A DNA stretch of 32,000 nt from positions 1,680,001 through 1,712,000 of the forward strand of contig NC_014833.1 in NCBI RefSeq assembly GCF_000179635.2, read 5' to 3'. Numbering within the stretch: the stretch's first letter is position 1; every line of letters starts with the position of its first letter. This stretch comes from Ruminococcus albus 7 = DSM 20455 (GTDB lineage: Bacteria; Bacillota; Clostridia; Oscillospirales; Ruminococcaceae). Below the pieces are notes generated by a model. That model saw only the letters and a list, made by a program, of their open reading frames with translations, searched no databases and was not told the DNA's origin. Shown one piece after another: positions 1 to 18,750 of the stretch. A program made the position numbers and the translations under genes.

Positions 1-1
1 G

Positions 2-1822
2 ATAAAGCAGGTTGAGAACGGCAAGACCACGACCTATACCTTTGACAAGCAGAACAGGCTCGTCAGAGCAACCATTTCGAGCGGTCAGAATGTTACGGTC
101 GAGGAGTATAGGTACGATTACGCAGGCAACAGAACTGCAAAAATAACCGAGGGCGAAACTACCAATTATGTAGTTGATACCAACAGTGCGCTTGCTCAGG
201 TCCTTTATGAAACTGACGGCACGGGCAGCTTGAAAACCTATTACACCAGAGGCAGTGAGCTTATTAGCTTACAGCGTGAGCACGAAGAACGCTACTATTT
301 GTATGACGGTCACGGCAATGTCAGAAGACTTACCGACGAGGACGGTGCTGTAACCGATACCTACGATTATGATGCGTTTGGAAACCTTACAGAGCATACG
401 GGCGAGACCGAGAACAGCTATCTCTATTGCGGTGAACAGTATGATGCAAATACAGGTTTCTACTATCTCCGTGCAAGATATATGAACCCGTCAACGGGGA
501 CATTTATCTCGATGGACAGCTATCAAGGCTCGATGTTTGATCCTGTAAGTCTGCATAAGTATCTGTATGCTAATGCGAATCCGGTGATGAATTGCGACCC
601 GACAGGTTATTTCACGATTGGGGAATGTGATGTCAGTGCAGCTATTCAAGGTGTTCTGGATAAGCTGATTACTCCTAAACTTATTCAGGTATTTAATCGT
701 ATCAACGATCTTGCCACTATTTATGAAACAGGTAAGCAAGTTGTAATGATCTTGACAGACCCTGATATGTCTGCATGGGATGTTGTGTTTGCCCTTGGTC
801 GTGGTGTTATCACAGGTTTGTTCATTAACCATATGTGTGCTATGAAACGCATTGGACCTATCATAAGTAAAATTATGGTTGGTTACGGTCTTGTGTCACA
901 ATGGGAAAGCATAATGGATGCCGCCAAAGACGGAGATTGGGATTTAGTTGCAACTCGTTCTATACAGTTTGTGGTTCAGCTTATCACAATGCACCAAAAC
1001 TGCTTTACCGGGGATACTCTGGTTGCGGCAGAGGACGGACAGATACGCATTGACGAAATTAAAGTCGGCGATAAGGTTTGGGCATATAATGTTGAAACCG
1101 GAGAAACCGAGCTTAAAGGAGTTAAGCAAGTCTACATTCACGAAACAGATGAGCTTTTACACCTATACACTTCTGTTGGTGCAATAGATACTACTTCTAA
1201 TCACCCATTTTACGTGCTTGGAGAAGGCTGGGTTGCCGCAGGTGACTTGGCTGTCGGCGATGAGATCTACTCTCTTGACGGAACGATTGGTATTGTCACC
1301 GGTTCTCAGTTTGAAAAGCTTGATGTGCCTATCAAGGTTTATAATCTTGAAGTTGCTGACTTCAATACATACTTTGTCGGCGATAATGCGGTTTTGGTGC
1401 ATAATTATTCTGATGGTGCAGATACAATGCACTATCCTAAGAAGGCACAAGATATCGATTTACGTGGTACAGGAACCAACTATCGTGATGCATTAGATAT
1501 CGCATTTGAACAGACTGGTTATCCAAAAGAACAGTTTATGGTTTCAAAGTGGGCAAGAGATATAAATGGTAAGTCTATACCAGTGGAATACATGGGACCG
1601 AATGGTTCATATGTTGACATAGATATAGCTCATTTGTCAAGTTTTGATAGAAATGGTAATTGGGCTACTGGACCAGATGTGCCACATGTAGGTTGGCAAA
1701 CTGGAAGAAGCAATAAAACAACAGGTCATATTTTACTTGATGATGTTCCAACAGGAAGAGATTATTGCTATTCTGATTTATCATCGCAAATCGCCAAAAT
1801 ATTAAAGCAATTCGGTTTATAA
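2..1822 (+). CDS. RHS/YD-repeat polymorphic toxin, C-terminal part (5' end lies upstream of the window). Layout: YD repeats, RHS core (ends at DPTG, ~nt 607), hydrophobic pre-toxin linker, PT-HINT (1001-1405), C-terminal toxin domain (1406-1819, family not recognised).
   Basis: Frame 2 is open from nt 2 (IKQVENGKTTTYTFDKQNRLV...), so the TTG at 230 in the ORF track is not the true start. YD-type repeats are present (YRYDYAGNR, YLYDGHGNVRRLTDEDG, YDYDAFGN). The RHS core signature reads YCGEQYDANTGFYYLRARYMNPSTGTFISMD...DPVSLHKYLYANANPVMNCDPTG. Hint motifs follow: CFTGDTLV...TSNHPFYV...VLVHN. Confidence 0.9.
   Translation: MKQVENGKTTTYTFDKQNRLVRATISSGQNVTVEEYRYDYAGNRTAKITEGETTNYVVDTNSALAQVLYETDGTGSLKTYYTRGSELISLQREHEERYYLYDGHGNVRRLTDEDGAVTDTYDYDAFGNLTEHTGETENSYLYCGEQYDANTGFYYLRARYMNPSTGTFISMDSYQGSMFDPVSLHKYLYANANPVMNCDPTGYFTIGECDVSAAIQGVLDKLITPKLIQVFNRINDLATIYETGKQVVMILTDPDMSAWDVVFALGRGVITGLFINHMCAMKRIGPIISKIMVGYGLVSQWESIMDAAKDGDWDLVATRSIQFVVQLITMHQNCFTGDTLVAAEDGQIRIDEIKVGDKVWAYNVETGETELKGVKQVYIHETDELLHLYTSVGAIDTTSNHPFYVLGEGWVAAGDLAVGDEIYSLDGTIGIVTGSQFEKLDVPIKVYNLEVADFNTYFVGDNAVLVHNYSDGADTMHYPKKAQDIDLRGTGTNYRDALDIAFEQTGYPKEQFMVSKWARDINGKSIPVEYMGPNGSYVDIDIAHLSSFDRNGNWATGPDVPHVGWQTGRSNKTTGHILLDDVPTGRDYCYSDLSSQIAKILKQFGL
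1001..1405 (+). repeat. HINT-domain coding block, copy 1 (5' homology handle of the toxin cassettes)
   Basis: Runs from Cys codon 1001-1003 (CFTGDTLV) to His-Asn 1400-1405. It aligns at the nucleotide and protein level with 2489-2896 and, for its 3' half, with 3790-3974. Confidence 0.85.
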
Positions 1823-1835
1823 GGGAGTGCTATTA

Positions 1836-2291
1836 ATGATTGAAGATTTAATAGAATATTGTGTTAAAGGTGATATTAGCTATCGAATTATATCAAACGA
1901 TGAGAAAGAAAAGATTAAAGGTTATATAAATGAACGATATCTTGATAAAAATAGAAAAAGTGGACGTACACTTTTCGACCATTTAAAAATCAGCGAAAGT
2001 GTTACTGCTGATGCTGTTGATTCATGGCAATGGTTGAAGCAGTTTTTCAAAGAGAAAAAGGCGGTTGCTTTTTTTAGATATGATGAAGAACAATACGTTG
2101 AATTGTATGATAGTAGTCTTTTCTTTGAATTCTATGATGATTATGCAGCAATTGAGTTCTATTTGATAGATTCAAATGGAGAATATCTATGCGGTTATAA
2201 TCATTCTCATTGTATTTTTACAATGGGAACTGCTGCCGATTGGTTAGAGAACAATGAGCAATATCGAAATTATTATGGATATGATTTGTGA
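1836..2291 (+). CDS. Candidate cognate immunity protein for the RHS C-terminal toxin (151 aa, acidic, no recognised family)
   Basis: An ORF lies immediately downstream of the toxin stop (1820-1822). RBS AAGGGAG at 1821-1827 sits 8 nt before ATG 1836; the GTG at 1827 in the track lies inside the RBS. The position is typical for a polymorphic-toxin immunity gene, and a strong terminator follows. Confidence 0.7.
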   Translation: MIEDLIEYCVKGDISYRIISNDEKEKIKGYINERYLDKNRKSGRTLFDHLKISESVTADAVDSWQWLKQFFKEKKAVAFFRYDEEQYVELYDSSLFFEFYDDYAAIEFYLIDSNGEYLCGYNHSHCIFTMGTAADWLENNEQYRNYYGYDL

Positions 2292-2360
2292 TTTGAATAT
2301 GTGGCTGATTGTCGAAAAAGTATAATGATATTTTCGATCTATTTGCCGAGGTCAAAATAA
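2277..2360 (+). repeat. 3' cassette handle, copy 1 (relic of an immunity-gene tail plus downstream sequence)
   Basis: GGATATGAT[TTGT]GATTTGAATATGTGGCTGATTGTCGAAAAAGTATAATGA...CTATTTGCCGAGGTCAAAATAA aligns with 3666-3744. A 4-nt indel (TTGT) creates the TGA stop of the first immunity gene. Confidence 0.8.
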
Positions 2361-2380
2361 ACTGACCTCGGCAATTTTTT
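2343..2380 (+). terminator. Rho-independent terminator after the toxin/immunity pair
   Basis: Perfect 12-bp stem TTGCCGAGGTCA / TGACCTCGGCAA with an 8-nt loop, followed by TTTTTT (2375-2380). Confidence 0.85.
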
Positions 2381-2389
2381 GCAAACCAC

Positions 2390-2418
2390 TTGACAAAACA
2401 TTAAACTTATGGCAAAAT
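2390..2418 (+). promoter_or_regulatory. Possible sigma-70-type promoter upstream of orphan cassette 1
   Basis: Perfect -35 TTGACA (2390-2395), 17-nt spacer, weak -10 CAAAAT (2413-2418) preceded by TGG. The -10 is weak and no RBS precedes ATG 2471, so this call is tentative. Confidence 0.3.
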
Positions 2419-2470
2419 ATAGATAAGCGAATGATTTTTTGTATGTTCAATACAGCTTCTGCTTTCACTC

Positions 2471-3256
2471 ATGTCTCTGCATCAGAACTGCTTTACAGGA
2501 GAAACACTTGTATCGACTGAGGACGGACAGAAGAGAATCGACGAGATAGAAGTCGGTGACAAGGTATGGGCGTATGACATATACACTGGAAAAACAGAGC
2601 TTAAAGAAGATCTGACAGTATATGTTCACGATGATGAGACAGAGATACTCCACCTTCACACAACAGCCGGCGACATAGACACAACAACAAATCACCCATT
2701 CTATGTAAACGGCAGAGGCTGGGTAGCTGCAGGCGACTTAACTGTTGGTGATGAGATTTATCAGCTTGACGGGTCAATTGCTGTTGTTACTGGTTCGCAG
2801 TTTGAGAAGCTTGATGTGCCTGTTAAGGTTTATAACCTTGATGTTGAAGATTTCCATTCTTACTTTGTTGGTGATGTGCCGGTTTTGGTGCATAATTATG
2901 GTGGTTCAAGTGATGATACTCCAAATACGCTCTACCATTACACAAATGAAAAGGGTCAAAATGCAATTTTAGAATCAAATGAATTGAAACCTTCGCTTAA
3001 AGCTAACAACCCAAATGATGCAAGATTTGGTGACGGTCAATATTTATCAGACCTTTTACCAGATGAATATTCGCCAATACAATTAGCGTCTCGGTTCATC
3101 CACAGACCAAACCGATACAAGTATACCCATTTTATAGAAATTTTAGTTGAAGGACTAAACGTTGTAAAAGGACGTGACGGAGTATATGTCATTCCTAATC
3201 AAGATTCTTTAGATTTGACTGGAAGAATTATACGATGGGGTAAAGTTGGGAGTTGA
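2471..3256 (+). CDS. Orphan toxin cassette 1: complete PT-HINT domain fused to a different C-terminal toxin (possible HYD1-type ADP-ribosyltransferase-like domain)
   Basis: The ORF starts 6 codons before the Hint Cys (MSLHQN-CFTGETLV). The Hint block 2489-2896 is homologous to 1001-1405 and ends VLVHN-YG. The tail LYHYTNEKGQNAILESNELKPS...ARFGDGQYLSDL resembles the H-Y-D signature of Tox-ART-HYD1 as I recall it (unverified). There is no RHS or delivery region and no RBS. Confidence 0.75.
   Translation: MSLHQNCFTGETLVSTEDGQKRIDEIEVGDKVWAYDIYTGKTELKEDLTVYVHDDETEILHLHTTAGDIDTTTNHPFYVNGRGWVAAGDLTVGDEIYQLDGSIAVVTGSQFEKLDVPVKVYNLDVEDFHSYFVGDVPVLVHNYGGSSDDTPNTLYHYTNEKGQNAILESNELKPSLKANNPNDARFGDGQYLSDLLPDEYSPIQLASRFIHRPNRYKYTHFIEILVEGLNVVKGRDGVYVIPNQDSLDLTGRIIRWGKVGS
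2489..2896 (+). repeat. HINT-domain coding block, copy 2
   Basis: Aligns with 1001-1405 over its full length and with 3790-3974 over its 3' half; I estimate ~93% nucleotide identity to the latter by eye. Confidence 0.85.
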
Positions 3257-3710
3257 TAGTACGGTATATATTTGTATTTCATTCTCTGATGATAAATATT
3301 ACATGGAACTAAATAAGGAAAATGTAGCTTTAAGAGAAATAATACTCCATTCAAAATCATCCATATTCGAGATATCATGTTTTGATGATTGTTTAGCAGA
3401 AGGAGAAGTGGACATTCGCCAAACTGAAGGAGAGATTCTAAAACTCACAAAAGAGCAATTCGAGGAAGTTTGGCAAGGCTATACCGCTCCGTGTAGACCT
3501 GAATGGAATAGAGTAAAAGAATCTATGACTATTGGTACACTTTTAAATATGAAACAGTGTTACATTTATCCGCAAGGAATTATACTTAAACAAAATCATA
3601 TAACAGGATTGTGTAAAAAAATTGACGATTTTTCGTTAAATAAAATTGTAACAGTAAAGATAACCGGGTATGATGATTTGAATATGTGGTTAATTGCCGA
3701 AAAAATATAA
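3246..3710 (+). CDS. Candidate immunity protein for orphan toxin 1 (about 154 aa)
   Basis: The ORF overlaps the toxin stop (3254-3256). Start is uncertain: TTG 3246 or ATG 3303. The C-terminus GYDDLNMWLIAEKI is the intact version of the tail relic seen at 2277-2330. Confidence 0.6.
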   Translation: MGVDSTVYICISFSDDKYYMELNKENVALREIILHSKSSIFEISCFDDCLAEGEVDIRQTEGEILKLTKEQFEEVWQGYTAPCRPEWNRVKESMTIGTLLNMKQCYIYPQGIILKQNHITGLCKKIDDFSLNKIVTVKITGYDDLNMWLIAEKI

Positions 3711-3744
3711 TAAGATTAGAACTATTTGCCCAGGTCAAGATAAT
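3666..3744 (+). repeat. 3' cassette handle, copy 2
   Basis: GGGTATGATGATTTGAATATGTGGTTAATTGCCGAAAAAATATAATAA...CTATTTGCCCAGGTCAAGATAA aligns with 2277-2360. The terminator hairpin present in copy 1 is missing here. Confidence 0.8.
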
Positions 3745-3789
3745 CTCAAAGTTTCGTCTCTTTTTTTGGTACTGTAAAGACAATTTGTC

Positions 3790-3974
3790 GGCTGGGTTTG
3801 GTTGCCGCAGGTGACTTGGCTGTTGGTGATGAGATTTATCAGCTTGACGGTTCAATTGCTGTTGTTACTGGTTCGCAGTTTGAAAAGCTTGATGTGCCTG
3901 TTAAGGTTTATAATCTTGAGGTTGAGGATTTCCATTCCTATTTTGTTGGTGATGTGCCGGTTTTGGTGCATAAC
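3790..3974 (+). repeat. HINT-domain coding block, copy 3 (3' half only)
   Basis: Near-identical to 2712-2896 by eye. Ends at CAT AAC (His-Asn) 3969-3974. Confidence 0.8.
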
Positions 3975-4229
3975 TATGGGAATGATGAACATCTGCCAAC
4001 ATATAATACGCCAGGAACTGGACCATTAAATAAATACGACGAATACGGTAATATTATCCAAACAAAGTATTATGACGAGTATGGTAGGCAAATAGGTTGG
4101 GTCGATTTTACCGATCATGGGTATCCTGATGTCCATACAATACCACATTGGCACGAAGTGATTTATAATGTTATTTTCCCAGATGGAAAAATAATCAATC
4201 ATAGAATGGATCCAAATCCACCATTTTAA
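3798..4229 (+). CDS. Orphan toxin cassette 2: 5'-truncated HINT (C-terminal half only) fused to a third, unrelated toxin domain. Probably not expressed on its own.
   Basis: Homology to the other HINT blocks begins abruptly at ~3790 (GGCTGGGTT) with a 5-nt TGGTT insertion. The protein reads (G)WVAAGDLAVGDEIYQLDG...VLVHN-YGNDEHL... The tail has YDEYGN / YYDEYGR repeats and the His-rich stretch DHGYPDVHTIPHWHE. The only start available is TTG 3798. Confidence 0.6.
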   Translation: MVAAGDLAVGDEIYQLDGSIAVVTGSQFEKLDVPVKVYNLEVEDFHSYFVGDVPVLVHNYGNDEHLPTYNTPGTGPLNKYDEYGNIIQTKYYDEYGRQIGWVDFTDHGYPDVHTIPHWHEVIYNVIFPDGKIINHRMDPNPPF

Positions 4230-4553
4230 CTAATTCCTGAATCTGCAAAGTTCATGTGTATTAAAATAGTAAAAGCATTGATATTTCAACGTTAAATTTA
4301 CTGTTTCATAGTACAATTATAGGTTATCAGTTGGGTGAAGTCACAAATAGTTATTATATCGCTAATAAACTGCGTTATATTGCTGTATTTTTCGCATATT
4401 TGTTGATTGAACTTTGCGGATTAAGGTAATTCTTTGTAAATTCTAAATGTTGTATGTCGAATGAAAAGAGTAATGTATTATTTGTTTGTACATTATTTTT
4501 AAAAAGGTATTCAATATTTAGCATTAACGATATACTAATAGGGAGGGATAAAG

Positions 4554-4901
4554 ATACTATTTACTTTAGATGATAGTAACTTTAATACTAGTAAGATCAT
4601 CAATATAATAAATGCAATTTCTACCATTGATAATAAAAATACTTATTTTATAATTAAACAATACGAGATTGCATTATTAAATAAGTACTATGATTGTTAT
4701 GAATTACCTAATGATTTAATAACAACTTTTGTTAAAATGCAAATTAAGAGTAATGGATTTGCTTGCATAGATTATTCCATGTTTATGCAGTCATTAAATG
4801 AATGCAGGACAGTATATTATGGTTTAATTGAAGCATATTCCTCTAATAATAAGCTTTTTCAATTAAAAATCCATGACGGTGATATTATAGAAATCGATTA
4901 A
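4554..4901 (+). pseudogene. Immunity-like open frame with no canonical start codon (115 sense codons). It may continue by a frameshift to the stop at 5024-5026.
   Basis: The frame is open from 4542 to TAA 4899-4901 in ~25% GC DNA, where stop codons should be frequent. A strong RBS GGGAGGG (4541-4547) lies 6 nt before ATA 4554. The first ATG/GTG/TTG in frame is far downstream, so the ORF track missed it. A second open frame (4891-5026, ...KAAQQLGIEKVKVDVIISYEESNELGITQLEIFKPVPKQYR) abuts it. The merged length of ~157 codons matches the neighbouring immunity ORFs. Confidence 0.4.
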
Positions 4902-5036
4902 AAGCGGCACAACAACTTGGCATTGAAAAGGTAAAAGTTGATGTAATAATATCATATGAAGAGTCTAACGAGTTGGGAATAACTCAATTAGAAATATTTA
5001 AGCCTGTTCCAAAACAATATAGGTAATGATGGTAAA

Positions 5037-5504
5037 ATGGGATTTGAAAGTTATTCATGCAAAGTTGTGATGGACAATTCAGATAATGATGGTGTACTTA
5101 ATGAATTTAACAATACTGTATCAAATATTTTGGATTTAAAAGTAAAAGAATTTAATAGTTACTATATTTATAAAAATATAGAAATTTATGTAGAAAAAGA
5201 AAACTTTGTTTCTTTTATTTTGAAGGGTTGTTTTATTTGTTATAATCAAGGATTAGATCAAATGATCGATATAATTAATTGTATAAAAGAAGTTGGTAAT
5301 GTACGCATATATTGCTTAGATCAATTAATTGATGATATTTCTTTTAAAACAAATATAAAGATACTATACAAAGAAAAGCAGGATTTTTTTGATAAAAAAT
5401 ATTCTAATATTATAGTAGAAACAACTTGTACTGGTTTTTATAGAATAAAGCCCTATATTGACTTTATGTTAAAAATAAAAAGTAAATTAGGGTTCTATAA
5501 ATGA
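5037..5504 (+). CDS. Hypothetical AT-rich protein (155 aa), possibly an orphan immunity protein at the end of the toxin locus
   Basis: Intact ORF in very AT-rich DNA, with size and composition similar to the other immunity candidates. Only a weak RBS. GC content rises sharply immediately after its stop (TGA 5502-5504). Confidence 0.55.
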   Translation: MGFESYSCKVVMDNSDNDGVLNEFNNTVSNILDLKVKEFNSYYIYKNIEIYVEKENFVSFILKGCFICYNQGLDQMIDIINCIKEVGNVRIYCLDQLIDDISFKTNIKILYKEKQDFFDKKYSNIIVETTCTGFYRIKPYIDFMLKIKSKLGFYK

Positions 5505-5924
5505 GCAATTTCGTCAAACTTCACGAATTTCGCGCCGAAAAGCGTACCAAAATACGCATCAGCGAAGTGGGATTCCAAAGGGGGGCACCCACACGGTGGT
5601 GCGCCCCTTATGGTGGGGTACGGGGCAAAGCCCCATTAAAATCAGCTGCGAGACTACAAACTTACCGGTCTGCACACTATTTCGAGCAGCTGCTACTTCC
5701 TTTGGGCGATATGAGCAACAGCGAACGAGCATACCCCCGAACCGTCACCGCAAAGCCGTCAAAATTGAGATTTAGTTCTGTGAAACTGATTACTAAAAAG
5801 TACGAATTTCCAATAACCCTTAGCCTACTGGCGCACCTGATTTCCGTTTCACACAAGTCATAATCAGAATTGTGGAGCATTCCACAACAGGCATAAACCC
5901 TATTGAAACGAATAACCGCAAGCT

Positions 5925-5967
5925 CTCGGAAACGCTCTGTAAGCGTTTCTGAGGGCTTTTTCTTTTC
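5925..5967 (+). terminator. Strong plus-strand intrinsic terminator inside the ORF-free left arm of the element
   Basis: 12-bp stem CTCGGAAACGCT / AGCGTTTCTGAG (one G-U pair), loop CTGTA, then GGCTTTTTCTTTTC. Confidence 0.6.
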
Positions 5968-6138
5968 AGCGGTTAGTTTTCCGCTCCGCAGGCTCGGACG
6001 GTGATGTGGAGCTTTTCCGTTCGTCTGACGGTCAAGCTGAGGTCTGCTCGGTGATGCCGTGACGGAGTTCATACGTAAGCGTATAACCCCCCGCATCATA
6101 AAAGCAAACAGCCGGGCAGATAACACCCGGCCGTAACA

Positions 6139-6677
6139 TCATATTCTGGCTTTGATTTCTCCATTTCTCTTTGCGTCCATGTATATTTCTTTGAAATCAG
6201 CTTTGCTGTTCGGACCGAATATGATCGGCATAACAGATACCAGGCCATCGGAAATGATCGCATTTTTAAATGGCAGAAGCGCTGCATCAAGCAAAGTTGG
6301 CATCGGTGCATTTCTCAGCATTTCCTCCCAACTGCTGACAATGCCGTTTACAAGAAAAACAGAATTGTCATCGATCGATATAAATACCGATCCCTTTTTC
6401 CAATGTCGCTCAATGATAAATCTGCCGGTGATGCACCCTTTCCAGCTTTTAAGTATCTCCATGTGTTCTTCGGGCAGATCCGATCGCTCAAGATAATCAT
6501 CAATGATCCATGTCCGTTCCCATAAAAGTGGGCAACCTCCGCAGCGTCCTGTGGGTCGATCATTCCTTGCCCGAAATAATCTTCCTCAGGAAGTATATGA
6601 TATTCTCTGTTCACATAGTCAAGCAGTGGAAAAAACAGTTCATAAAACAGCTTTGCATCTTCATTACTAAGTTTCAT
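6139..6677 (-). pseudogene. IS66 copy A passenger gene of unknown function (~180 aa if repaired), apparent frameshift
   Basis: Two overlapping ORFs (6348-6677 and 6139-6462) read as a single protein if one base is restored near the T-run at ~6515-6525. Its ATG overlaps the tnpC stop (GGAGGGAAGAAAATGAAA). A hairpin (GCCGGG...CCCGGC, ~6110-6132) lies between the ORF and the IS end. Confidence 0.5.
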
Positions 6678-8177
6678 TTTCTTCCCTCCATGGTAATAAT
6701 ATCGTCCCCGCAGGCTGTGAAAACAGCTCGGTCAGGTATTTCTCAGCATCAACACCGTTCGCCTGTGCAGTTGAAATGATCGAATACAGCGTTGCACTTG
6801 ATCTGGCTCCGTTTGCTGTATTTGAAAACAGCCAATTTTTTCGGCCTAACGCAAACGGTCTTATTGCGTTTTCGGCTCTGTTGTTGTCGATAGGCACGTC
6901 TCCGTTTTCAAGAAACGTGTAAAGATATTTCCGTTCATTCAACGCATATCTTACTGCATCTGTCAGCTTGCCCTTACCACTGACCTGAACATTTTCAAGC
7001 CACGCAAAAAACTCGTCAAGCAAAGGCTTTACCTTCACAAGGCGCTGTTTATATCTGTATTCTGTGGAGCTGTCGGCAAGCAGATTTTCTTCGTGATATA
7101 TCTTGTTGAAATATTCTACTGCCTTTGCCGCAACAGAAGTGCTGTGCAGCTTTTGGTCGTTCGGAAGAGCCTGAATAAAACCACGCCTTGCATGAGTCAT
7201 ACAGCCGCATCGCTTAGCACCCTCGACTGCATTGTAGGCATCGTATCCGTCACAGATAAGATAGCCGATAAATCCTTTCAGGAAATTCGAGGCGTGCTCA
7301 CCCTTTCGTGTCGGCTGATAATCGAAAATGATGATGCTCCTGTCATTCATTTTGCCGTTGCAGTAGACCCACATTCTTGATGTCGTGGTAGGCTTTCGGC
7401 CTTCCTCGTGAAGCACCTGAACGGTCGTTTCATCGGCATGGATCATCTGCCCTGCGATAAGCATCTCATGCATTTTCTCCACAATCGGCAAACACCATTT
7501 TTCGGCAGCAGTGCCTACCCAATTAGACATAGTCGCTTTGAGCAGAGGTATGTTTTTGGAATTAAAGTCCTTTTCCTGACGGTGCAGAGGTACTGACTTT
7601 GCATATTTTCGTAGATGATATGAGCCAGAAGTTCGGGAGAGCAATAGCTTCCCGGGATCATAGCGTGAGGATATGGCGCACGGATGATATGACAAGGTTC
7701 GTCCCTTTCTTCGGGCTTTTCTCCGCACTCGGGACACTTGTACTTATGTACTATATGCCTGCGGATATGATATTTTGGCGGCGTAAATATAAGTTCATCG
7801 TAAGCCTTTTCGGGAGTCAGTTCTTCCATTTCGGCGCCGCATATTTCGCATACCGGGTTGTCAATTTTGTGATGTTCTTCTTTTACAGGCAGATTGTTCA
7901 TCCATTCATCGTGAGTGCGTTTTTTCTTGCGCTTGTGTTCGGGAACAGTAATTGTTTCGGCAGATTTAGCTGCGGATTTTTCTTCATTGTTTCCGAACAT
8001 GGAAAGCTGAACACCGAACTCCTTTTCCATAACAACAGATGTCTGCTCTGTTTTTCTTCCGAATATCTGCTTTCTGAACCACGCTAACTGCTGATTGGCA
8101 AGTGCTAGTTCTTCCTTGAGAACAGCGTTTTCATTACGGAGCGATACAATTTCCGATGTCATATTTGGTTCGGACAT
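6667..8177 (-). pseudogene. tnpC: IS66 transposase TnpC, copy A, single frameshift
   Basis: The N-terminal frame (MSEPNMTSEIVSLRNENAVLKEEL..., zinc-ribbon CEICG...CPECG) and the C-terminal frame (...HADETTVQVL...DGYDAYN...NRAENAIRPFALGRKNWLF, DDE region) overlap. The shift maps to an A4 run (7606-7609, minus strand) that is A5 in copy B. RBS GGAGGGG lies before ATG 8177. Confidence 0.85.
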
Positions 8178-8269
8178 AAAGCACCCCTCCGTTCGTGATG
8201 ATACTTTAATGATACCACGAAAAGAGGGGCTTTTCAAGCACATATTCTGAATATTCGGTAAGTATTGCC

Positions 8270-8626
8270 TTAATACAGCGCCCCCGGCTTTCCCTCACGG
8301 ATAGCCTTCGGCTGCTCTATTTTCAAGCCTTCCAGAAGCCAGCGAATTTGCTGAGATGTGAGCATTACTGCTTCGGTCTCACTGCGCGGCCACTGGAATC
8401 TTCCGTTGTCAAGGCGCTTGTACAACAGCAGAAAACCATCGCCCTCCCACAGCAGACCTTTGATGCGGTCACAACGTCTGCCGCAGAACAAAAACAATGC
8501 TTTCGAGAACGGGTCAAGTCGAAGCTGAGCCTGAACGATAGTCGCAAGTCCGTCTATCCCGCGTCGAAGGTCGGTGTATCCCGTAACAAGATAGACCTGT
8601 GCGTCCGCTGCCAGATCATTCAGCAT
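8270..8626 (-). CDS. tnpB: IS66 accessory protein TnpB (Orf2), copy A, intact
   Basis: The 118-aa product is identical in sequence to the copy B product (16789-17145). It has the typical IS66 Orf2 size and position, overlapping the tnpA end. Confidence 0.85.
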   Translation of the reverse strand: MLNDLAADAQVYLVTGYTDLRRGIDGLATIVQAQLRLDPFSKALFLFCGRRCDRIKGLLWEGDGFLLLYKRLDNGRFQWPRSETEAVMLTSQQIRWLLEGLKIEQPKAIREGKPGALY

Positions 8627-8938
8627 AGCTCATGCACCAAAGCGGTCAGAGTGTCCGCAGATATATCTGCCGGAAGAGATATTTGAAGTCCGTTTTTCTC
8701 AATGCGGATATTTTCGTTTGAGCAAGGAACTGATACAGGAACGATGGTCGGAGAATTTTCGATATACTTTTCTACGAACTTTTCTTAGGCGGTTGTAATA
8801 CGTGTTTGGCTTGATCCCTTTTTCTTTGCACCATTCCCGGATCGTCAGACCGCTTGCCTGCTGTGCTTTGATCTGCGCAGACCATTCCTGAAGCTGCATT
8901 TCTTTTTTGATTGTTGTGATGGATGTTGTTTTGTCCAT
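8620..8938 (-). pseudogene. tnpA: IS66 TnpA (Orf1, HTH), copy A, frameshifted
   Basis: Same N-terminus as copy B (MDKTTSITTIKKEMQLQEWSAQIKAQQASGLTIREWCKE). An extra A at ~8773 (CGT-A-GAAAAG versus CGTGAAAAG in copy B) changes the frame and gives a premature stop at 8699. Confidence 0.75.
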
Positions 8939-9038
8939 ACCTGTTACCTCCTTGTCTAATCGTCTCCAATGAACTCCATGGATCAATTTGGATTATTCAA
9001 TTTACTTCATGGTGTTCCTTGGAGTTTATTATACTTTA

Positions 9039-9638
9039 TTAGACTTCGGTGGGGTAGGTGCTGGGGGTTATACGCTTACGTTCATACTCACGCACACGGC
9101 GGTAAAAGGTATTTGCCGACATATCCATTCTCCGCATAAAATCACGCCCCGTGATGTGCTTTGATTTCCATTCCCCATAGAGCTGCCCGAACCTCGTCCA
9201 GTCGGTGGGGATAGGCTTTCGCCCGGTGTACTTGCCCTGTGCCTTAGCGATCTCGATGCCCTCACGCTGTCGCTGTTTAAGCTGCTCACGCTCCAACTGA
9301 GAGAGTGCAGCGAACACAGTCAACATAAATTTACCCGCAGGCGTGTCGGTGTCAATTTTCTCCTTGTGGCTGATAAGGGTAACACCCTTTTCCGTCAGGG
9401 TGTCGATGATGTTCAGCAAGTCTTTCGTGGAGCGTCCGAGACGGCTGATGCTCTCGATATAGAGAGTATCGCCCTCACGCACATAGTCCAGCATAGCCCT
9501 GAGCTGAGGGCGGTCTGTGTTCGCTCCTGATAGCTTCTCGGAGAAGATGCGGTCAACCTGATAGTCGCACATGATCTCCTGCTGTCTTGCCGTCTCCTGA
9601 TGTTCGGTGGAAACTCTGATGTATCCGATTTTGCTCAT
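9039..9638 (-). CDS. Small serine recombinase (resolvase/invertase family) whose 3' end is replaced by the IS66 terminus
   Basis: MSKIGYIRVSTEHQ...RLGRS...C-terminal HTH. RBS AGGA lies 9 nt before ATG 9638; an alternative ATG at 9656 overlaps the relaxase stop. Codons after ...RRVREYE are encoded by the IS end (RKRITPSTYPTEV*). Removing the IS and one TSD copy restores ...REYELRHGITEQTSA* with its stop at 6032-6034, and the restored length (612 nt) is in frame. Confidence 0.85.
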   Translation of the reverse strand: MSKIGYIRVSTEHQETARQQEIMCDYQVDRIFSEKLSGANTDRPQLRAMLDYVREGDTLYIESISRLGRSTKDLLNIIDTLTEKGVTLISHKEKIDTDTPAGKFMLTVFAALSQLEREQLKQRQREGIEIAKAQGKYTGRKPIPTDWTRFGQLYGEWKSKHITGRDFMRRMDMSANTFYRRVREYERKRITPSTYPTEV

Positions 9639-9655
9639 GTTATCGTATCCTTTCA

Positions 9656-11332
9656 TTATTCCAGATAGTTTTTGTTTTTCTGCTGGGTGAGCTTCTTCTG
9701 CCTGTATTTCTCACGCTCACGCCTGTTGTGTTCTTCGTTCATATAGTTTCTGACCTGTCGGACATACTTCTTCGCTGTATCACGCTTGGTGACAAATGCC
9801 GTGTGTTCAGGGAGAAGACTGTTATACTTCGATTTCAGCTTGTTGGACTTCTCCAAAAGGTCAAGCATTGTCGGCGGTTTGCCGTCAACAAGATAGGGCT
9901 GTCTATGCTCCTTGATGTACTTGGCTGTTTCCTCATAATCCTCGATAGCGGCGGCGTTTTTCTTCTTGAAACGGCTCTGAAACCAGCCCGATTTGCCTTG
10001 ATACTCCTTGTAGACAGGTGCAAGCTCGTCACGGTGTTTCATCTTGGCGATAAGTGTGTCGATAGCTGTGTATTTCTTTTTCAGCTCCGCAAGTTCGTCC
10101 GTGTGGTCATCAGGGTGACCGCCCTTGTAAAAGAAACTCGCAAGCACATGATATGAAGTCACACCGCCCGATTCAAGGTCTGCGATAATTTCATTGGCTC
10201 TGCCCATACCACGAATCTCTGCCCACGGGTCGGCAGGTGGTGTTGCTTTCTTTTCTGCCTGCGCCTGCCTATCCTGCTCGTTGAGGATTTTGATATATTC
10301 CTCCTCGGTCATAACGCTGAGATTGCTTTCAGGTTCGTTCGCAACAGTTGTCGGTTTGGGTGCAGGAGTGATCTCGGCTGACCTCTCGTCAAGAAGTGCA
10401 AAGAATTCCTCGCTTGTGAGTCCTTTGCTCTTGGTTGGCTTAGTCGGTGCGGTAACTGTCGGTGTCGGCTCGGTCTTGGGTGTGACCGTAGGTTTGGGCG
10501 GTGCAACAGCCTTTTCGGGATTTTTCTTTTCAGCAAGCCTTTCCATAGCAGACTTTGCTTTCTGTATCTGCTCTATCTGCTCGGCTATTCGCTCTGCGGT
10601 GTAGTCTTCGCCCAGCGTTTCGGCTCTTGTGAATTTCTGCTGTCCCTCGCCCGAAAGTCTGAACTTCAGCTTGACTTTGTTCTGTGGCTTGTAAACATAC
10701 TCGATACCGCTTGCAGAACAATTGCGGAGAAAATCTGCAAAGTCCTTGCTGTAAAATGCGACTTCGGCAATCTTGGCTCGGAGTTTGTCTTTCCACGACT
10801 TGCCCTGCAACTGCATATCACGTTCAAAATGAGATACGCCTTTCGCTTTCGGTTCAATTACAGATATGCCGTGTTCCTTGCATAGCTCGTCCGAAATAGC
10901 CCGTAACTGCGCCCATGACCTGTCCTTTACCTTGCCTTGATTGTGTTCGTAGGTAAAACTAAGCCCGTTGTAGAGATTTGTGTTGTTGAAAATGATGTGA
11001 CAATGGGTATGGGACTTGTCTGTGTGAACGGCAAGCACATATTGATAGTTGCCTTGTAAGAAACGGTCGCACAATTCCTCTCCGATCTGCAAGGCTTGTT
11101 CGGGTGTCACTTCATCAGGAGCGAAACTCTGGACTATGTGGTGTGCGAGAATTTGTGTTCGTTCTGTGCCGCCTGCTCTGACGGCTCGGAAGTCGGCGGC
11201 AGCACCGATGCTGTCGGCTCGGCAGGAATAAGACTGCACATATAAGCCGTTGATGGTCTTATCACTTCGGGTGATGTAGTCAAGCGCCGCCCAGTCTGTT
11301 GCCTTGATTGAATGGATAGAAGTGTATGCCAA
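9656..11332 (-). CDS. Relaxase / mobilization nuclease (MobA/VirD2-type) with a Pro/Thr/Lys-rich linker and a long C-terminal region
   Basis: N-terminus MAYTSIHSIKATDWAALDYITRSDKT and the His triad motif VLAVHTDKSHTHCHIIFNNT. TTG start with an upstream GAGAGGGG. The gene sits directly downstream of the mobC-like gene. Confidence 0.85.
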   Translation of the reverse strand: MAYTSIHSIKATDWAALDYITRSDKTINGLYVQSYSCRADSIGAAADFRAVRAGGTERTQILAHHIVQSFAPDEVTPEQALQIGEELCDRFLQGNYQYVLAVHTDKSHTHCHIIFNNTNLYNGLSFTYEHNQGKVKDRSWAQLRAISDELCKEHGISVIEPKAKGVSHFERDMQLQGKSWKDKLRAKIAEVAFYSKDFADFLRNCSASGIEYVYKPQNKVKLKFRLSGEGQQKFTRAETLGEDYTAERIAEQIEQIQKAKSAMERLAEKKNPEKAVAPPKPTVTPKTEPTPTVTAPTKPTKSKGLTSEEFFALLDERSAEITPAPKPTTVANEPESNLSVMTEEEYIKILNEQDRQAQAEKKATPPADPWAEIRGMGRANEIIADLESGGVTSYHVLASFFYKGGHPDDHTDELAELKKKYTAIDTLIAKMKHRDELAPVYKEYQGKSGWFQSRFKKKNAAAIEDYEETAKYIKEHRQPYLVDGKPPTMLDLLEKSNKLKSKYNSLLPEHTAFVTKRDTAKKYVRQVRNYMNEEHNRREREKYRQKKLTQQKNKNYLE

Positions 11333-13118: not shown

Positions 13119-14818
<1,700 letters not shown>

Positions 14819-16152: not shown

Positions 16153-16477
16153 AACCTTTCAGATCAGTATCAGTTATTCAAGCGGATAAGCAACTGAGTG
16201 ATCGTTATATCAGTTTACTAAGTTTGCCGTCCTTGGATAATTATACCACAATAATATCTTCAAGTAAAGTGTTTTGATGCGCGGGTTAACACGGTATCTT
16301 GGTACAGCTTTTTCTGCACATAAAAAAGCTCCGACAGTAAGCGTATAACCACACGCACCTACCTCACCAAAGTCTAATGAAGTATAATAAACTCCAAACA
16401 ACACCATGAAGTAAATTGAATAATCCAAATTGATCCATGGAGTTCATTGGAGACGATTAGACAAGGAGGTAACAGGT

Positions 16478-16795
16478 ATGGACAAAACAACATCCATCAC
16501 AACAATCAAAAAAGAAATGCAGCTTCAGGAATGGTCTGCGCAGATCAAAGCACAGCAGGCAAGCGGTCTGACGATCCGGGAATGGTGCAAAGAAAATGGG
16601 ATCAAGCCAAACACGTATTACAACCGCCTAAGAAAAGTGCGTGAAAAGTATATCGAAAATTCTCCGACCATCGTTCCTGTATCAGTTCCTTGCTCAAACG
16701 AAAATATCCGCATTGAGAAAAACGGACTTCAAATATCTCTTCCGGCAGATATATCTGCGGACACTCTGACCGCTTTGGTGCATGAGCTATGCTGA
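16478..16795 (+). CDS. tnpA: IS66 TnpA (Orf1, HTH), copy B, intact
   Basis: RBS AAGGAGG before ATG 16478. The stop overlaps the tnpB start (ATGCTGA). Confidence 0.85.
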   Translation: MDKTTSITTIKKEMQLQEWSAQIKAQQASGLTIREWCKENGIKPNTYYNRLRKVREKYIENSPTIVPVSVPCSNENIRIEKNGLQISLPADISADTLTALVHELC

Positions 16796-17145
16796 ATGAT
16801 CTGGCAGCGGACGCACAGGTCTATCTTGTTACGGGATACACCGACCTTCGACGCGGGATAGACGGACTTGCGACTATCGTTCAGGCTCAGCTTCGACTTG
16901 ACCCGTTCTCGAAAGCATTGTTTTTGTTCTGCGGCAGACGTTGTGACCGCATCAAAGGTCTGCTGTGGGAGGGCGATGGTTTTCTGCTGCTGTACAAGCG
17001 CCTTGACAACGGAAGATTTCAGTGGCCGCGCAGTGAAACAGAAGCTGTAATGCTCACATCTCAGCAAATTCGCTGGCTTTTAGAAGGTTTGAAGATCGAA
17101 CAGCCGAAAGCTATCCGTGAAGGAAAACCGGGCGCGCTGTATTAA
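16789..17145 (+). CDS. tnpB: IS66 TnpB (Orf2), copy B, intact
   Basis: 118 aa, protein identical to copy A. Nucleotide differences from copy A are synonymous and are confined to the 3' third. Confidence 0.85.
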   Translation: MLNDLAADAQVYLVTGYTDLRRGIDGLATIVQAQLRLDPFSKALFLFCGRRCDRIKGLLWEGDGFLLLYKRLDNGRFQWPRSETEAVMLTSQQIRWLLEGLKIEQPKAIREGKPGALY

Positions 17146-17237
17146 GGCAATACTTACCGAATATTCAGAATATGTGCTTGAAAAGCCCCTCTTTTCGTGG
17201 TATTATGGATGTATCATCACGAACGGAGGGTTGCTTT

Positions 17238-18750
17238 ATGTCCGAACAAAATATGACATCGGAAATAGTATCACTCCGTAATGAAAATGCTGTCCTCAAA
17301 GAAGAACTAGCACTTGCCAACCAGCAGCTGGAATGGTTCAGAAAGCAGATATTCGGAAGAAAAACGGAGCAGACAGCTGTTGTCATGGAGAAAGAATTCG
17401 GTGTTCAGCTATCGATGTTCGGGAAAGAAGAAAAGTCTGTATATAAAGAGCATGGAACAATAACTGTTCCCGAACACAAGCGCAAGAAAAAGCGAACTTA
17501 TGATGACTGGATGAGCAGTCTTCCTGTTAAAGAGGAACATCATGAGATCAAAGATCCCGTCTGTGAGATATGCGGCGCGAAAATGGTGGAGATCGGTGAT
17601 GAAAAGGCTTATGATGAGCTTGTATATTCACCCGCCAAATTCTATATCCGCAGACATATCGTACATAAATACAAGTGTCCCGAGTGCGGAGAAAAGCCCG
17701 AAGAAAGAGACGAACCTTGTCATATCATCCGTGCGCCATATCCTCACGCTATGATCCCGGGAAGCTATTGCTCTCCCGAACTTCTGGCTCATATCATCTA
17801 CGAAAAATATGCAAAAGTCAGTACCTCTGCACCGTCAGGAAAAGGACTTTTTTTAAATTTCCCAAAAAAAGATACCTTTGCTAAAAGCGACTATGTCTAA
17901 TTGGGTAGGTGCTGCCGCTGAAAAATGGTGTCTGCCGGTCGTTGAGAAAATGCATGAAATGCTTATCGCAGGACAGATCATCCACGCTGATGAGACAACA
18001 GTGCAAGTTCTTCACGAGGAAGGCAGAAAAGCCACATCGGTATCGAGGATGTAGGTGTACTGCAACGGCAAGATGAACGACCGCAACATCATCATTTTCG
18101 ATTATCAGCCCACAAGGAAAGGCGAGCATCCCTCGAATTTCCTTAAAGGCTTTATCGGATATCTGGTCTGTGACGGATATGATGCCTACAACGCTGTCGA
18201 GAGTGCGAAGCGGTGCGGCTGTATGACTCATACCAGGCGTGGTTTTATTCAGACTCTTCCGAACGACCAAAAGCTGCACAGCACTTCTGTTGCGGCAAAG
18301 GCAGTAGAATATTTCAACAAGATATATCACGAAGAAAATCTGCTTGCCGACAGCTCCACAGAATACAGATATGAACAGCGCCTTGTGAAGGTAAAGCCTT
18401 TGCTTGACGAGTTTTTTGCGTGGCTTGAAACTGTTCAGGTCAGCGGTAAGGGCAAGCTGACAGATGCAGTAAGATATGCGCTGAATGAACGGAAGTATCT
18501 GTATACATTTCTCGAAAACGGAGACGTGCCTATCGACAACAACAGAGCCGAAAACGCAATAAGACCGTTTGCTGTCGGCAGACGCAATTGGTTATTCAGT
18601 AACACAGCCAACGGAGCAAAAGCGAGCGCCGCACTGTATTCAGTCATTTCAACTGCACAAGCGAACGGTCTTGATGCCGAGAAATACCTGACCGAGCTGT
18701 TTTCACAGCCTGCGGGAACGATATTATTACCATGGAGGGAAGAAAAATGA
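17238..18750 (+). pseudogene. tnpC: IS66 transposase TnpC, copy B, with three lesions
   Basis: An extra A in the run at 17813-17816 shifts the frame. A 9-nt T/A-rich insertion carries an in-frame TAA (17854-17856). A TGG-to-TAG nonsense change lies at 18052-18054 (SRM*VYCNGK, versus SRMWVYCNGK in copy A). Confidence 0.85.

Follow-up and report, generated by a model that had tools for sequence, protein, structure and literature searches.

Why should two unrelated immunity genes, close neighbors in one array of toxin cassettes, end in the same sequence? The question is raised by 32,000 nucleotides (nt) of the Ruminococcus albus 7 = DSM 20455 genome (NC_014833.1, positions 1,680,001–1,712,000, forward strand), hereafter the window, numbered from its first letter. 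Its left 5.5 kb are the end of a polymorphic toxin locus in which the 3′ end of a large YD/RHS toxin gene is followed by imm1, a candidate immunity gene for the Ntox47 toxin domain (1836–2291, 151 aa, with a weak DUF6756 match), then by an orphan cassette encoding a HYD1 ADP-ribosyltransferase, and by imm2, a candidate immunity gene for the latter (a 154-aa open reading frame [ORF], 3246–3710); both genes, like the other parts of the toxin locus described below, lie on the forward strand. A first-pass annotation of the window had read the repeated sequence as a second conserved handle which, together with the PT-HINT coding region on the 5′ side, would flank each toxin–immunity pair and allow its exchange by double crossover. 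We consider it probable that the copy behind imm1 is instead the fossil of an imm2 3′ end, left by one old replacement of a HYD1–imm2 cassette by an Ntox47–imm1 cassette, and hence an ordinary scar with no dedicated handle involved.

Two Copies of One Block

The two copies lie at 2277–2363 and 3666–3746. Gapped local alignment yields a 75-nt core (2289–2363 vs. 3674–3746) with 82.7% identity and one 2-nt gap, and its score of 84 compares with 19.6 ± 2.6 (maximum 29) in 500 shuffles, far above chance, which confirms the close alignment first reported; 5′ of a 4-nt gap, the motif GG(A/G)TATGAT matches too. The copies share no identical stretch of more than 16 nt. No third copy or other match was found on either strand of the 32-kb window. 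As had also been claimed, the genes in front of the blocks are otherwise unrelated: BLASTP returns E = 24 for imm1 against imm2, and hhalign of the two family profiles a probability of 0.25%, on which grounds remote homology between them was rejected.

The two copies differ in what they encode. The coding part of copy 2 (3666–3710) is the native, in-frame C-terminus of imm2, GYDDLNMWLIAEKI followed by the stop codon, and corresponds to a predicted last beta-strand; behind it, the 3′ untranslated region (3′-UTR, 3711–3766) contains a decayed terminator, whose left arm, loop (AGATAATCTCAAAG), and T-run are kept and whose right arm is mutated. In copy 1, the coding relic (2277–2325) reads GYD-TTGT-DLNMWLIVEKV-stop and represents the former last 14 codons and stop of an imm2-family gene, frameshifted and mostly untranslated. 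The imm1 protein ends in GYDL, codons that belong to the relic, and the DLNMWLIVEKV codons lie past its stop and out of frame, so the reading frames bear out the earlier distinction between a real C-terminus in copy 2 and an untranslated remainder in copy 1. The relic is followed at 2326–2380 by a former imm2 3′-UTR, made of a spacer and an intact intrinsic terminator.

Comparison with related loci (designated L; proteins are designated P) indicates where copy 1 did not come from. With the native imm2 tail of L059 it shares 89.8% identity, whereas the value for copy 2 of the window is 82.7%, and its spacer GTATAATGATATTTT matches the 3′-UTR of the imm2 homolog in L001 (82% over 89 nt). Because copy 1 is thus nearer to foreign imm2 alleles than to copy 2, it was not copied from the neighboring gene, and intragenomic gene conversion was rejected.

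A Block Native to the 3′ End of imm2 Genes

The imm2 homologs show that genes of this family natively end in the block, which consists of about 14 last codons, a short 3′-UTR, and the family's own terminator. The close homologs, which come from metagenomes and share 63–79% identity, all end in ..GYD[DN]LNMWL[IV]V[ED]K, and G141, Y142, D143, L145, N146, M147, W148, and L149 are invariant in the family alignment. A profile search of 1.84 billion representatives recovered 183 clusters at E ≤ 0.001, of which 79 also pass E ≤ 1e-10 (counted at 50% identity; the proteins P0014–P0162 stem from this search), and the distant members also keep GYD[DE]xN[ML]W[LIV] at the very C-terminus. In an AlphaFold model of imm2, of moderate confidence (predicted local distance difference test score, pLDDT, 65), the last two strands are residues 135–143 and 148–153. 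The best local PDB matches of this model are, with the same moderate confidence, S1 domains such as 4nnh (root-mean-square deviation 2.4 over 77 columns), and one imm2 relative has a weak S1_RRP5 match. The tail may accordingly be modeled, with moderate confidence, as the last strand of an S1-like barrel. Since it is kept in close and distant members and falls in the predicted last strands, it is an integral and old part of the imm2 fold. Elsewhere in the family, the N-terminal half is conserved (..ALRQI....SC.EDCLAEG..) and the C-terminal half is S1/OB-like in appearance.

The gene neighborhood connects this family to HYD1 toxins. In L058 and L059, homologs of imm2 lie directly 3′ of PT-HINT and HYD1 toxins, and in L002 and P0014 they are preceded by toxin remnants; because they adjoin HYD1 toxins, imm2 is a candidate immunity gene for the HYD1 toxin, as judged from gene position. 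The immunity candidates gave no NCBIfam match, and the imm2 family has neither a Pfam nor an NCBIfam model. Lone homologs lacking a toxin occur in L002 (200–270), in L035 (8092–9078), where the gene follows another small ORF without assignment, and in L001 (2880–3560), where it seems to lie just downstream of a tRNA-like sequence. The window copy itself may be poorly translated or truncated at its N-terminus. Where imm2 genes usually start with ATG AAA TAT ATT TGT, preceded by a GGAGG-type site, the window has ACG GTA TAT ATT TGT (ACG at 3261–3263); the only in-frame starts are a TTG at 3246 and an internal ATG at 3303, and the NCBI product (P0001, 135 aa) begins at 3303.

A Frameshifted Relic Confined to One imm1 Clade

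The imm1 family (homologs P0008–P0013) gives the opposite picture. The gene directly follows Ntox47 toxins in the window, in L003-8, and in L009-12, but the block is restricted to a part of its members. Distant, short-form imm1 genes, with 58–67% identity, end in ..YYK or ..YGL and run into unrelated sequence (L009-12, L015-16), and homology of the window imm1 to the short form of L009 stops at 2264. The close clade, which comprises four lineages with 79–92% amino acid identity, ends in GYDL, GYDLMI, or GYDMMV, and in all cases an out-of-frame imm2 tail and then an imm2-type 3′-UTR lie downstream of the stop.

The frameshift itself is informative about the number of origins. Native imm2 reads GGGTATGAT-GATTTGAAT at the corresponding position. 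In L057, the junction is GGATACGAT-ATGAT-GGTTTGAAT (reading GAT-ATGAT-GGTTTGA), in L003 it is GGATACGAT-TTGAT-GATTTGAAT (reading GAT-TTGAT-GATTTGA), and in the window and L013 it is GGATATGAT-TTGT-(G/A)ATTTGAAT. The junctions are nested variants of one change: ATGAT was duplicated in tandem (5 nt), and the lineage of the window and L013 then lost 1 nt. The 4-nt TTGT insertion of the first-pass annotation thus holds for the pairwise comparison of the two window copies and fails as the ancestral change. That the indel site is common to the imm1 clade argues for a single origin, and the relic indeed arose once and is confined to this clade. When the indel is removed, the frame reads imm1 core followed by GYDDLNMWLIVEKV and a stop, so that the original product was an in-frame chimera.

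The same observations bear on the idea that imm1 and imm2 share the block through an ancestral C-terminal motif, through convergence, or through recent gene conversion from copy 2. Both genes do have about 150 codons with a G-Y-D near the end. Yet imm1 and imm2 have no protein or profile similarity elsewhere, their DNA reaches 83–90% identity only over the last ~110 nt, a stretch that extends into non-coding sequence, and the distant imm1 genes are devoid of the motif. Conversion from copy 2 has to contend, besides the greater likeness of copy 1 to foreign alleles, with the presence of the relic in loci whose flanks, as far as sequenced, contain no imm2 gene (L003-8 and L057). We regard any of these three origins as extremely improbable.

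Past the stop codon, the relic seems to decay at a roughly neutral rate, with no sign of extra constraint. Between lineages of the imm1 clade, the region from GYD to the terminator (~100 nt) is 72–79% identical, as compared with 71–76% at imm1 codon third positions for the same pairs; for the window and L013, the two values are 90% and 96%.

Reconstruction of a Probable Replacement

The history in which copy 1 is the scar of a cassette replacement would run as follows. In the ancestor of the present imm1 subclade, an Ntox47–imm1 cassette would have overwritten a resident HYD1–imm2 cassette, with the left crossover presumably located in the conserved PT-HINT/RHS coding region and the right-hand joint immediately ahead of the GYD codons in the resident imm2. 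The product would have been the in-frame chimera, which would have retained the resident terminator. The 5-nt duplication would later have frameshifted the borrowed tail (hence GYDMMV and GYDLMI), and the further 1-nt loss would have led to GYDL in the R. albus lineage. Thereafter, imm1, the relic, and the terminator, along with a promoter-like site in some lineages, would have been inherited and moved as one piece.

From this arrangement we infer both the replacement event and its mechanism, homology-facilitated illegitimate recombination. A candidate for the one-sided anchor, the PT-HINT/RHS coding region, is present, and an anchor on one side combined with a microhomology joint on the other would be the pattern expected of this mechanism. 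With L009 and L059 standing in for the parental sequences, imm1 (..GTATTAT) and imm2 (..GTATAATC) abut GGATATGAT with ~3–4 nt of microhomology. The short-form imm1 proceeds from ..GAGTATTAT to AAATAA and native imm2 from ..CGTATAATC to GGATATGAT, and the chimera joins ..AATTATTAT to GGATATGAT. The first-pass annotation is also upheld in that the relic records recombination on the 3′ side of a toxin–immunity cassette.

Several points weigh against the scar interpretation. Neither a donor or recipient pair nor the in-frame chimera survives in the data, so that the replacement is a reconstruction. The exact joint cannot be fixed, as the short-form relative ends in YGL and part of the "YG" might be native to imm1, and the microhomology at the preferred joint is only those ~3–4 nt long. 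An alternative joint would lie at the 10-nt microhomology GATGATTTGA and keep the native imm1 stop; this placement is less likely, since the GGxTAyGAT match, 5 nt out of register, would then have to be a coincidence. The comparison of relic and third-position rates is a small sample, and the scans described below have a limited reach, such that out-of-frame relics behind other genes could be missed.

Terminators and Promoter-Like Sites

According to the first-pass annotation, copy 1 still carries the terminator hairpin and copy 2 has lost it, and folding energies agree. In copy 1, the stem-loop at 2343–2374 (12 bp with 7 GC pairs, a loop of 8, then T6 at 2375–2380) has a free energy (dG) of −21.9 kcal/mol and the form of an intrinsic (Rho-independent) terminator; as such, it would terminate the rhs–imm1 transcript. 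Copy 2, although its T-run remains, folds at just −3.0 kcal/mol, and the hairpin is therefore lost, even though homology to the terminators of L003, L059, and L002, which fold at −14 to −16.5 kcal/mol, reaches 3764–3766. In the 3′-UTRs of the imm2 homologs of L002 and L059, the homologous hairpin is CCGAGG..GAGATAATCTCAA..CCTCGG plus a T-run. Going by its structure, the hairpin looks like the sole part of copy 1 that is still functional. Behind short-form imm1 genes, in which the relic is missing, stands a terminator (L009, 1835–1875) with the stem core GCCGAGGTC..GACCTCGGC, then CTTGACAA, as in window 2343–2395; the stem core common to L009 and copy 1 may be a coincidence or a second shared 3′ element.

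Between the terminator and the second cassette lies a promoter-like site (2390–2418), TTGACA, 17 nt, TG-CAAAAT, with a 10/12 consensus match and an extended −10 TG, which is conserved in L013. In L003, TTGACA-17-TATAAT follows the terminator, yet just a convergent helicase gene lies beyond it.

These elements raise the possibility that the shared segment is kept as a functional 3′ regulatory unit, whether a terminator, an mRNA-stability element, or a terminator–promoter junction serving expression of the orphan, with the coding relic merely traveling along. The hairpin is indeed retained, with different, compensating right arms, in five lineages (the window, L013, L003, L002, and L059), and a promoter-like site follows it in the window and L013 (TTGACA-17-TG..AAT) as well as in L003. 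On the other hand, L057 has the relic and no hairpin, copy 2 has lost its own, and the promoter-like sites are consensus matches, whose number is no higher than in shuffled sequence (25 vs. 23.9). A regulatory role would, moreover, account for retention of the terminator and not for the origin of the block, which makes it compatible with the scar interpretation rather than a true alternative; as the explanation of the block, we find it unlikely.

Distribution of the Block and the Exchange-Handle Hypothesis

If the block were a handle, it would be expected behind further unrelated immunity genes, where the first-pass annotation had proposed to look for the DLNMWLI tail. An exact degenerate pattern for DLNMWLI[AV]EK had 0 matches in species-representative genomes (the R. 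albus source genome not being among them), and a second DNA pattern had three in the same set, all due to chance. A relaxed DNA pattern gave 40 matches in metagenome contigs; only that in L035, an imm2 homolog forming an orphan immunity gene, is real, and the rest are due to chance. A blastn search of a plasmid collection with the block found no match. A synthetic protein query made of three tail copies returned no candidates, in-frame tails on unrelated proteins not being properly surveyed by it. Among all fetched loci, the block stands solely behind imm2-family genes and the imm1 clade, and no third immunity family carrying it was seen there, the searches consisting of exact DNA patterns and proteins from two families. 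It is absent after the third cassette of the window, after short-form imm1 (L009-12, L015-16), and after the DUF4304 gene of L013 in the fetched arrays.

These results bear on a maintained 3′ recombination handle that would flank the cassettes, together with the PT-HINT coding region, for double homologous crossover. In its favor, two unrelated immunity genes of one array end in the same ~80–110 nt, the imm1 module with its relic is found in three surroundings (the window, L003, and L013), and the chimeric imm1 unit, which is preceded by a HINT-linked toxin and ends in a tail of imm2 type, could in principle replace HYD1–imm2 by two-sided homology. Against it, the block belongs natively to one family and has a single origin in the second, other immunity genes of the fetched arrays are not followed by it, and the collection scans, within their limited reach, revealed no further carriers. 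Block copies with independent junctions behind at least three unrelated cassettes, as an exchange site would have, were not found in these scans, and neither was above-neutral conservation of the non-coding copy over its ~100 nt. Identical runs of at most 16 nt, at 83% identity, are short for RecA-type exchange. Finally, an intact HYD1–imm2 cassette still lies downstream of the relic, so this locus has undergone no two-sided replacement. The proposed handle flanking each toxin–immunity pair thus reduces to the native tail of imm2, acquired by one other family in a single event, and the two-sided homology required for double-crossover exchange is not borne out. We judge a maintained handle to be quite unlikely. 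A narrower variant, in which the imm2 last-strand codons and terminator would repeatedly provide homology for anchoring the right-hand side in rumen Ruminococcus, and tail-capturing cassettes would replace HYD1–imm2 two-sidedly, seems to us very unlikely; if true, such a recurrent imm2-tail anchor would mean that exchange in PT-HINT arrays is genuinely two-ended.

A 618-bp Module and Ragged Joints in Related Loci

The scar interpretation has imm1 and its relic moving together, and a second locus displays such a unit. A 618-bp module of the window (1814–2431), containing imm1, the relic, the terminator, and the promoter-like site, is 94.3% identical to L013 (765–1382) by blastn. Because the module is conserved to this degree and its flanks are unrelated between the two loci, the chimera moves as a unit. 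Its edges are sharp, being the toxin stop and ribosome-binding site at the left and ..AGATAAGC at the right, with a TGA (2431–2433) exactly at the right edge. Two different orphans begin at the same right edge, that of L013 in the RHS core (..YYLRARYMNP..) and that of the window ~12 codons before HINT.

L013 keeps imm1 with no Ntox47; a different toxin and a DUF4304 gene precede it there. In L002, the final 15 codons of a HYD1 toxin are left in front of imm2. L002 and L013 are related loci with other ragged right-hand joints.

The Toxin Locus and Its Surroundings

The part of the main toxin gene that lies in the window (1–1822) encodes an RHS repeat, a PT-HINT (nt 1019–1405), and an Ntox47 domain (nt 1433–1753), with Pfam E-values of 5e-8, 7e-28, and 3e-24. 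In an identical R. albus contig (L063), the full-length toxin has 3501 aa with TEN_YD-shell and RHS_repeat matches; the R. albus contig JHYT01000043.1 (GCA_000621285.1) is 100% identical to window 1–6392, where this draft contig breaks. The second cassette (2434–3256) consists of ~12 pre-HINT codons, a PT-HINT (2507–2896; 4.1e-26), and a Tox-ART-HYD1 domain (2930–3229; 1.1e-26), and includes the repeat families D1 and D3. Its HINT is 73.6% identical to the main one, and its ORF (2471–3256) begins with an ATG at 2471 that has no obvious ribosome-binding site (Shine-Dalgarno). The third cassette (3789–4229, or 3798–4229 when delimited more narrowly), which begins just ~25 nt past the decayed imm2 terminator, contains the 3′ half of a PT-HINT (2.8e-10, profile positions 76–136) and then a weak Ntox24-like domain (0.002, under the cutoff); it starts in mid-HINT and is there 91.8% identical to the HINT of the second cassette and 80.9% to the main copy. 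The locus thus combines the features of a YD/RHS PT-HINT toxin system: an RHS/YD protein, a PT-HINT before the variable toxin, a co-varying small downstream gene, and orphans derived from the conserved region.

For 1.3 kb after the third cassette, to ~5500, the DNA is very AT-rich (23–29% GC), and GC rises to 48% at ~5600; two ORFs in this stretch, 4560–4901 (with no standard start) and 5037–5504, match no family. Farther on, two IS66-family copies (6677–9079 and 16337–18746), inverted with respect to each other and 83–96% complementary, each have the tnpC transposase frame split into two ORFs. They bracket ~7.3 kb with genes for a resolvase, a MobA-type relaxase, a large serine recombinase, an AraC-type regulator, and a HAD hydrolase, and this stretch looks like a composite or mobilizable element inserted beside the toxin array. 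The recombinase genes nearest the block, those of the resolvase (9039–9656) and serine recombinase (13190–14818), lie inside this element, more than 5 kb away. An Rfam scan of the whole window gave no match.

Relation to Known Systems and Implications

The finding is a well-documented case of a process already known, in a familiar kind of locus, and no new kind of element is involved. The portions of Poole et al. (2011; PMC3150448) that we draw on describe orphan toxin–immunity modules in Rhs and CdiA loci ("C-terminal displacement") and state the exchange mechanisms to be unknown. As described there, these loci share with ours a large conserved delivery protein, a variable C-terminal toxin followed by the cognate immunity gene, orphan modules that open with a fragment of the conserved region, and modules shared between loci of different strains. 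They differ in that the boundary is VENN or PxxxxDPxGL there and PT-HINT here, in a Gram-positive rumen Ruminococcus. A 3′ remnant of the previous immunity gene fused to the incoming one, as seen here, does not appear in those portions of the paper.

Homology-facilitated illegitimate recombination has been proposed for displacement of type VI secretion system (T6SS) effector–immunity pairs in Vibrio cholerae and hypothesized for Rhs loci (Kirchberger et al. 2017; PMC5361080). In both cases, a conserved upstream anchor would be combined with a non-homologous right-hand joint, past replacements are recorded by remnants and by immunity genes that were retained, and the arrays later move by ordinary homologous recombination; L002 and L013 show the same outcome, with immunity kept and toxin lost. 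In contrast to V. cholerae, the imm1 joint would fall inside the resident immunity gene, and the resident pair would have been lost save for 14 codons and the terminator. Delivery here is by a YD/RHS protein with PT-HINT, no T6SS genes being present in the window, and the mechanism is inferred in both systems. The locus also resembles integron cassette arrays, in which promoterless cassettes lie downstream of a fixed point and older ones are pushed distally. Integron cassettes, however, each carry an attC recognized by the integrase; here the block stands behind two of three cassettes and is the native coding sequence of one family, with no imperfect palindrome beyond an ordinary terminator and no adjacent integrase.

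The relic provides a clean sequence-level footprint of toxin–immunity cassette replacement in a Gram-positive YD/RHS–PT-HINT locus. It supports models of displacement by one-sided homology for Rhs, contact-dependent inhibition (CDI), and T6SS loci and speaks against two-sided exchange by design. The analysis also defines a sizeable immunity family that has had no Pfam model, linked to HYD1 ADP-ribosyltransferase toxins.

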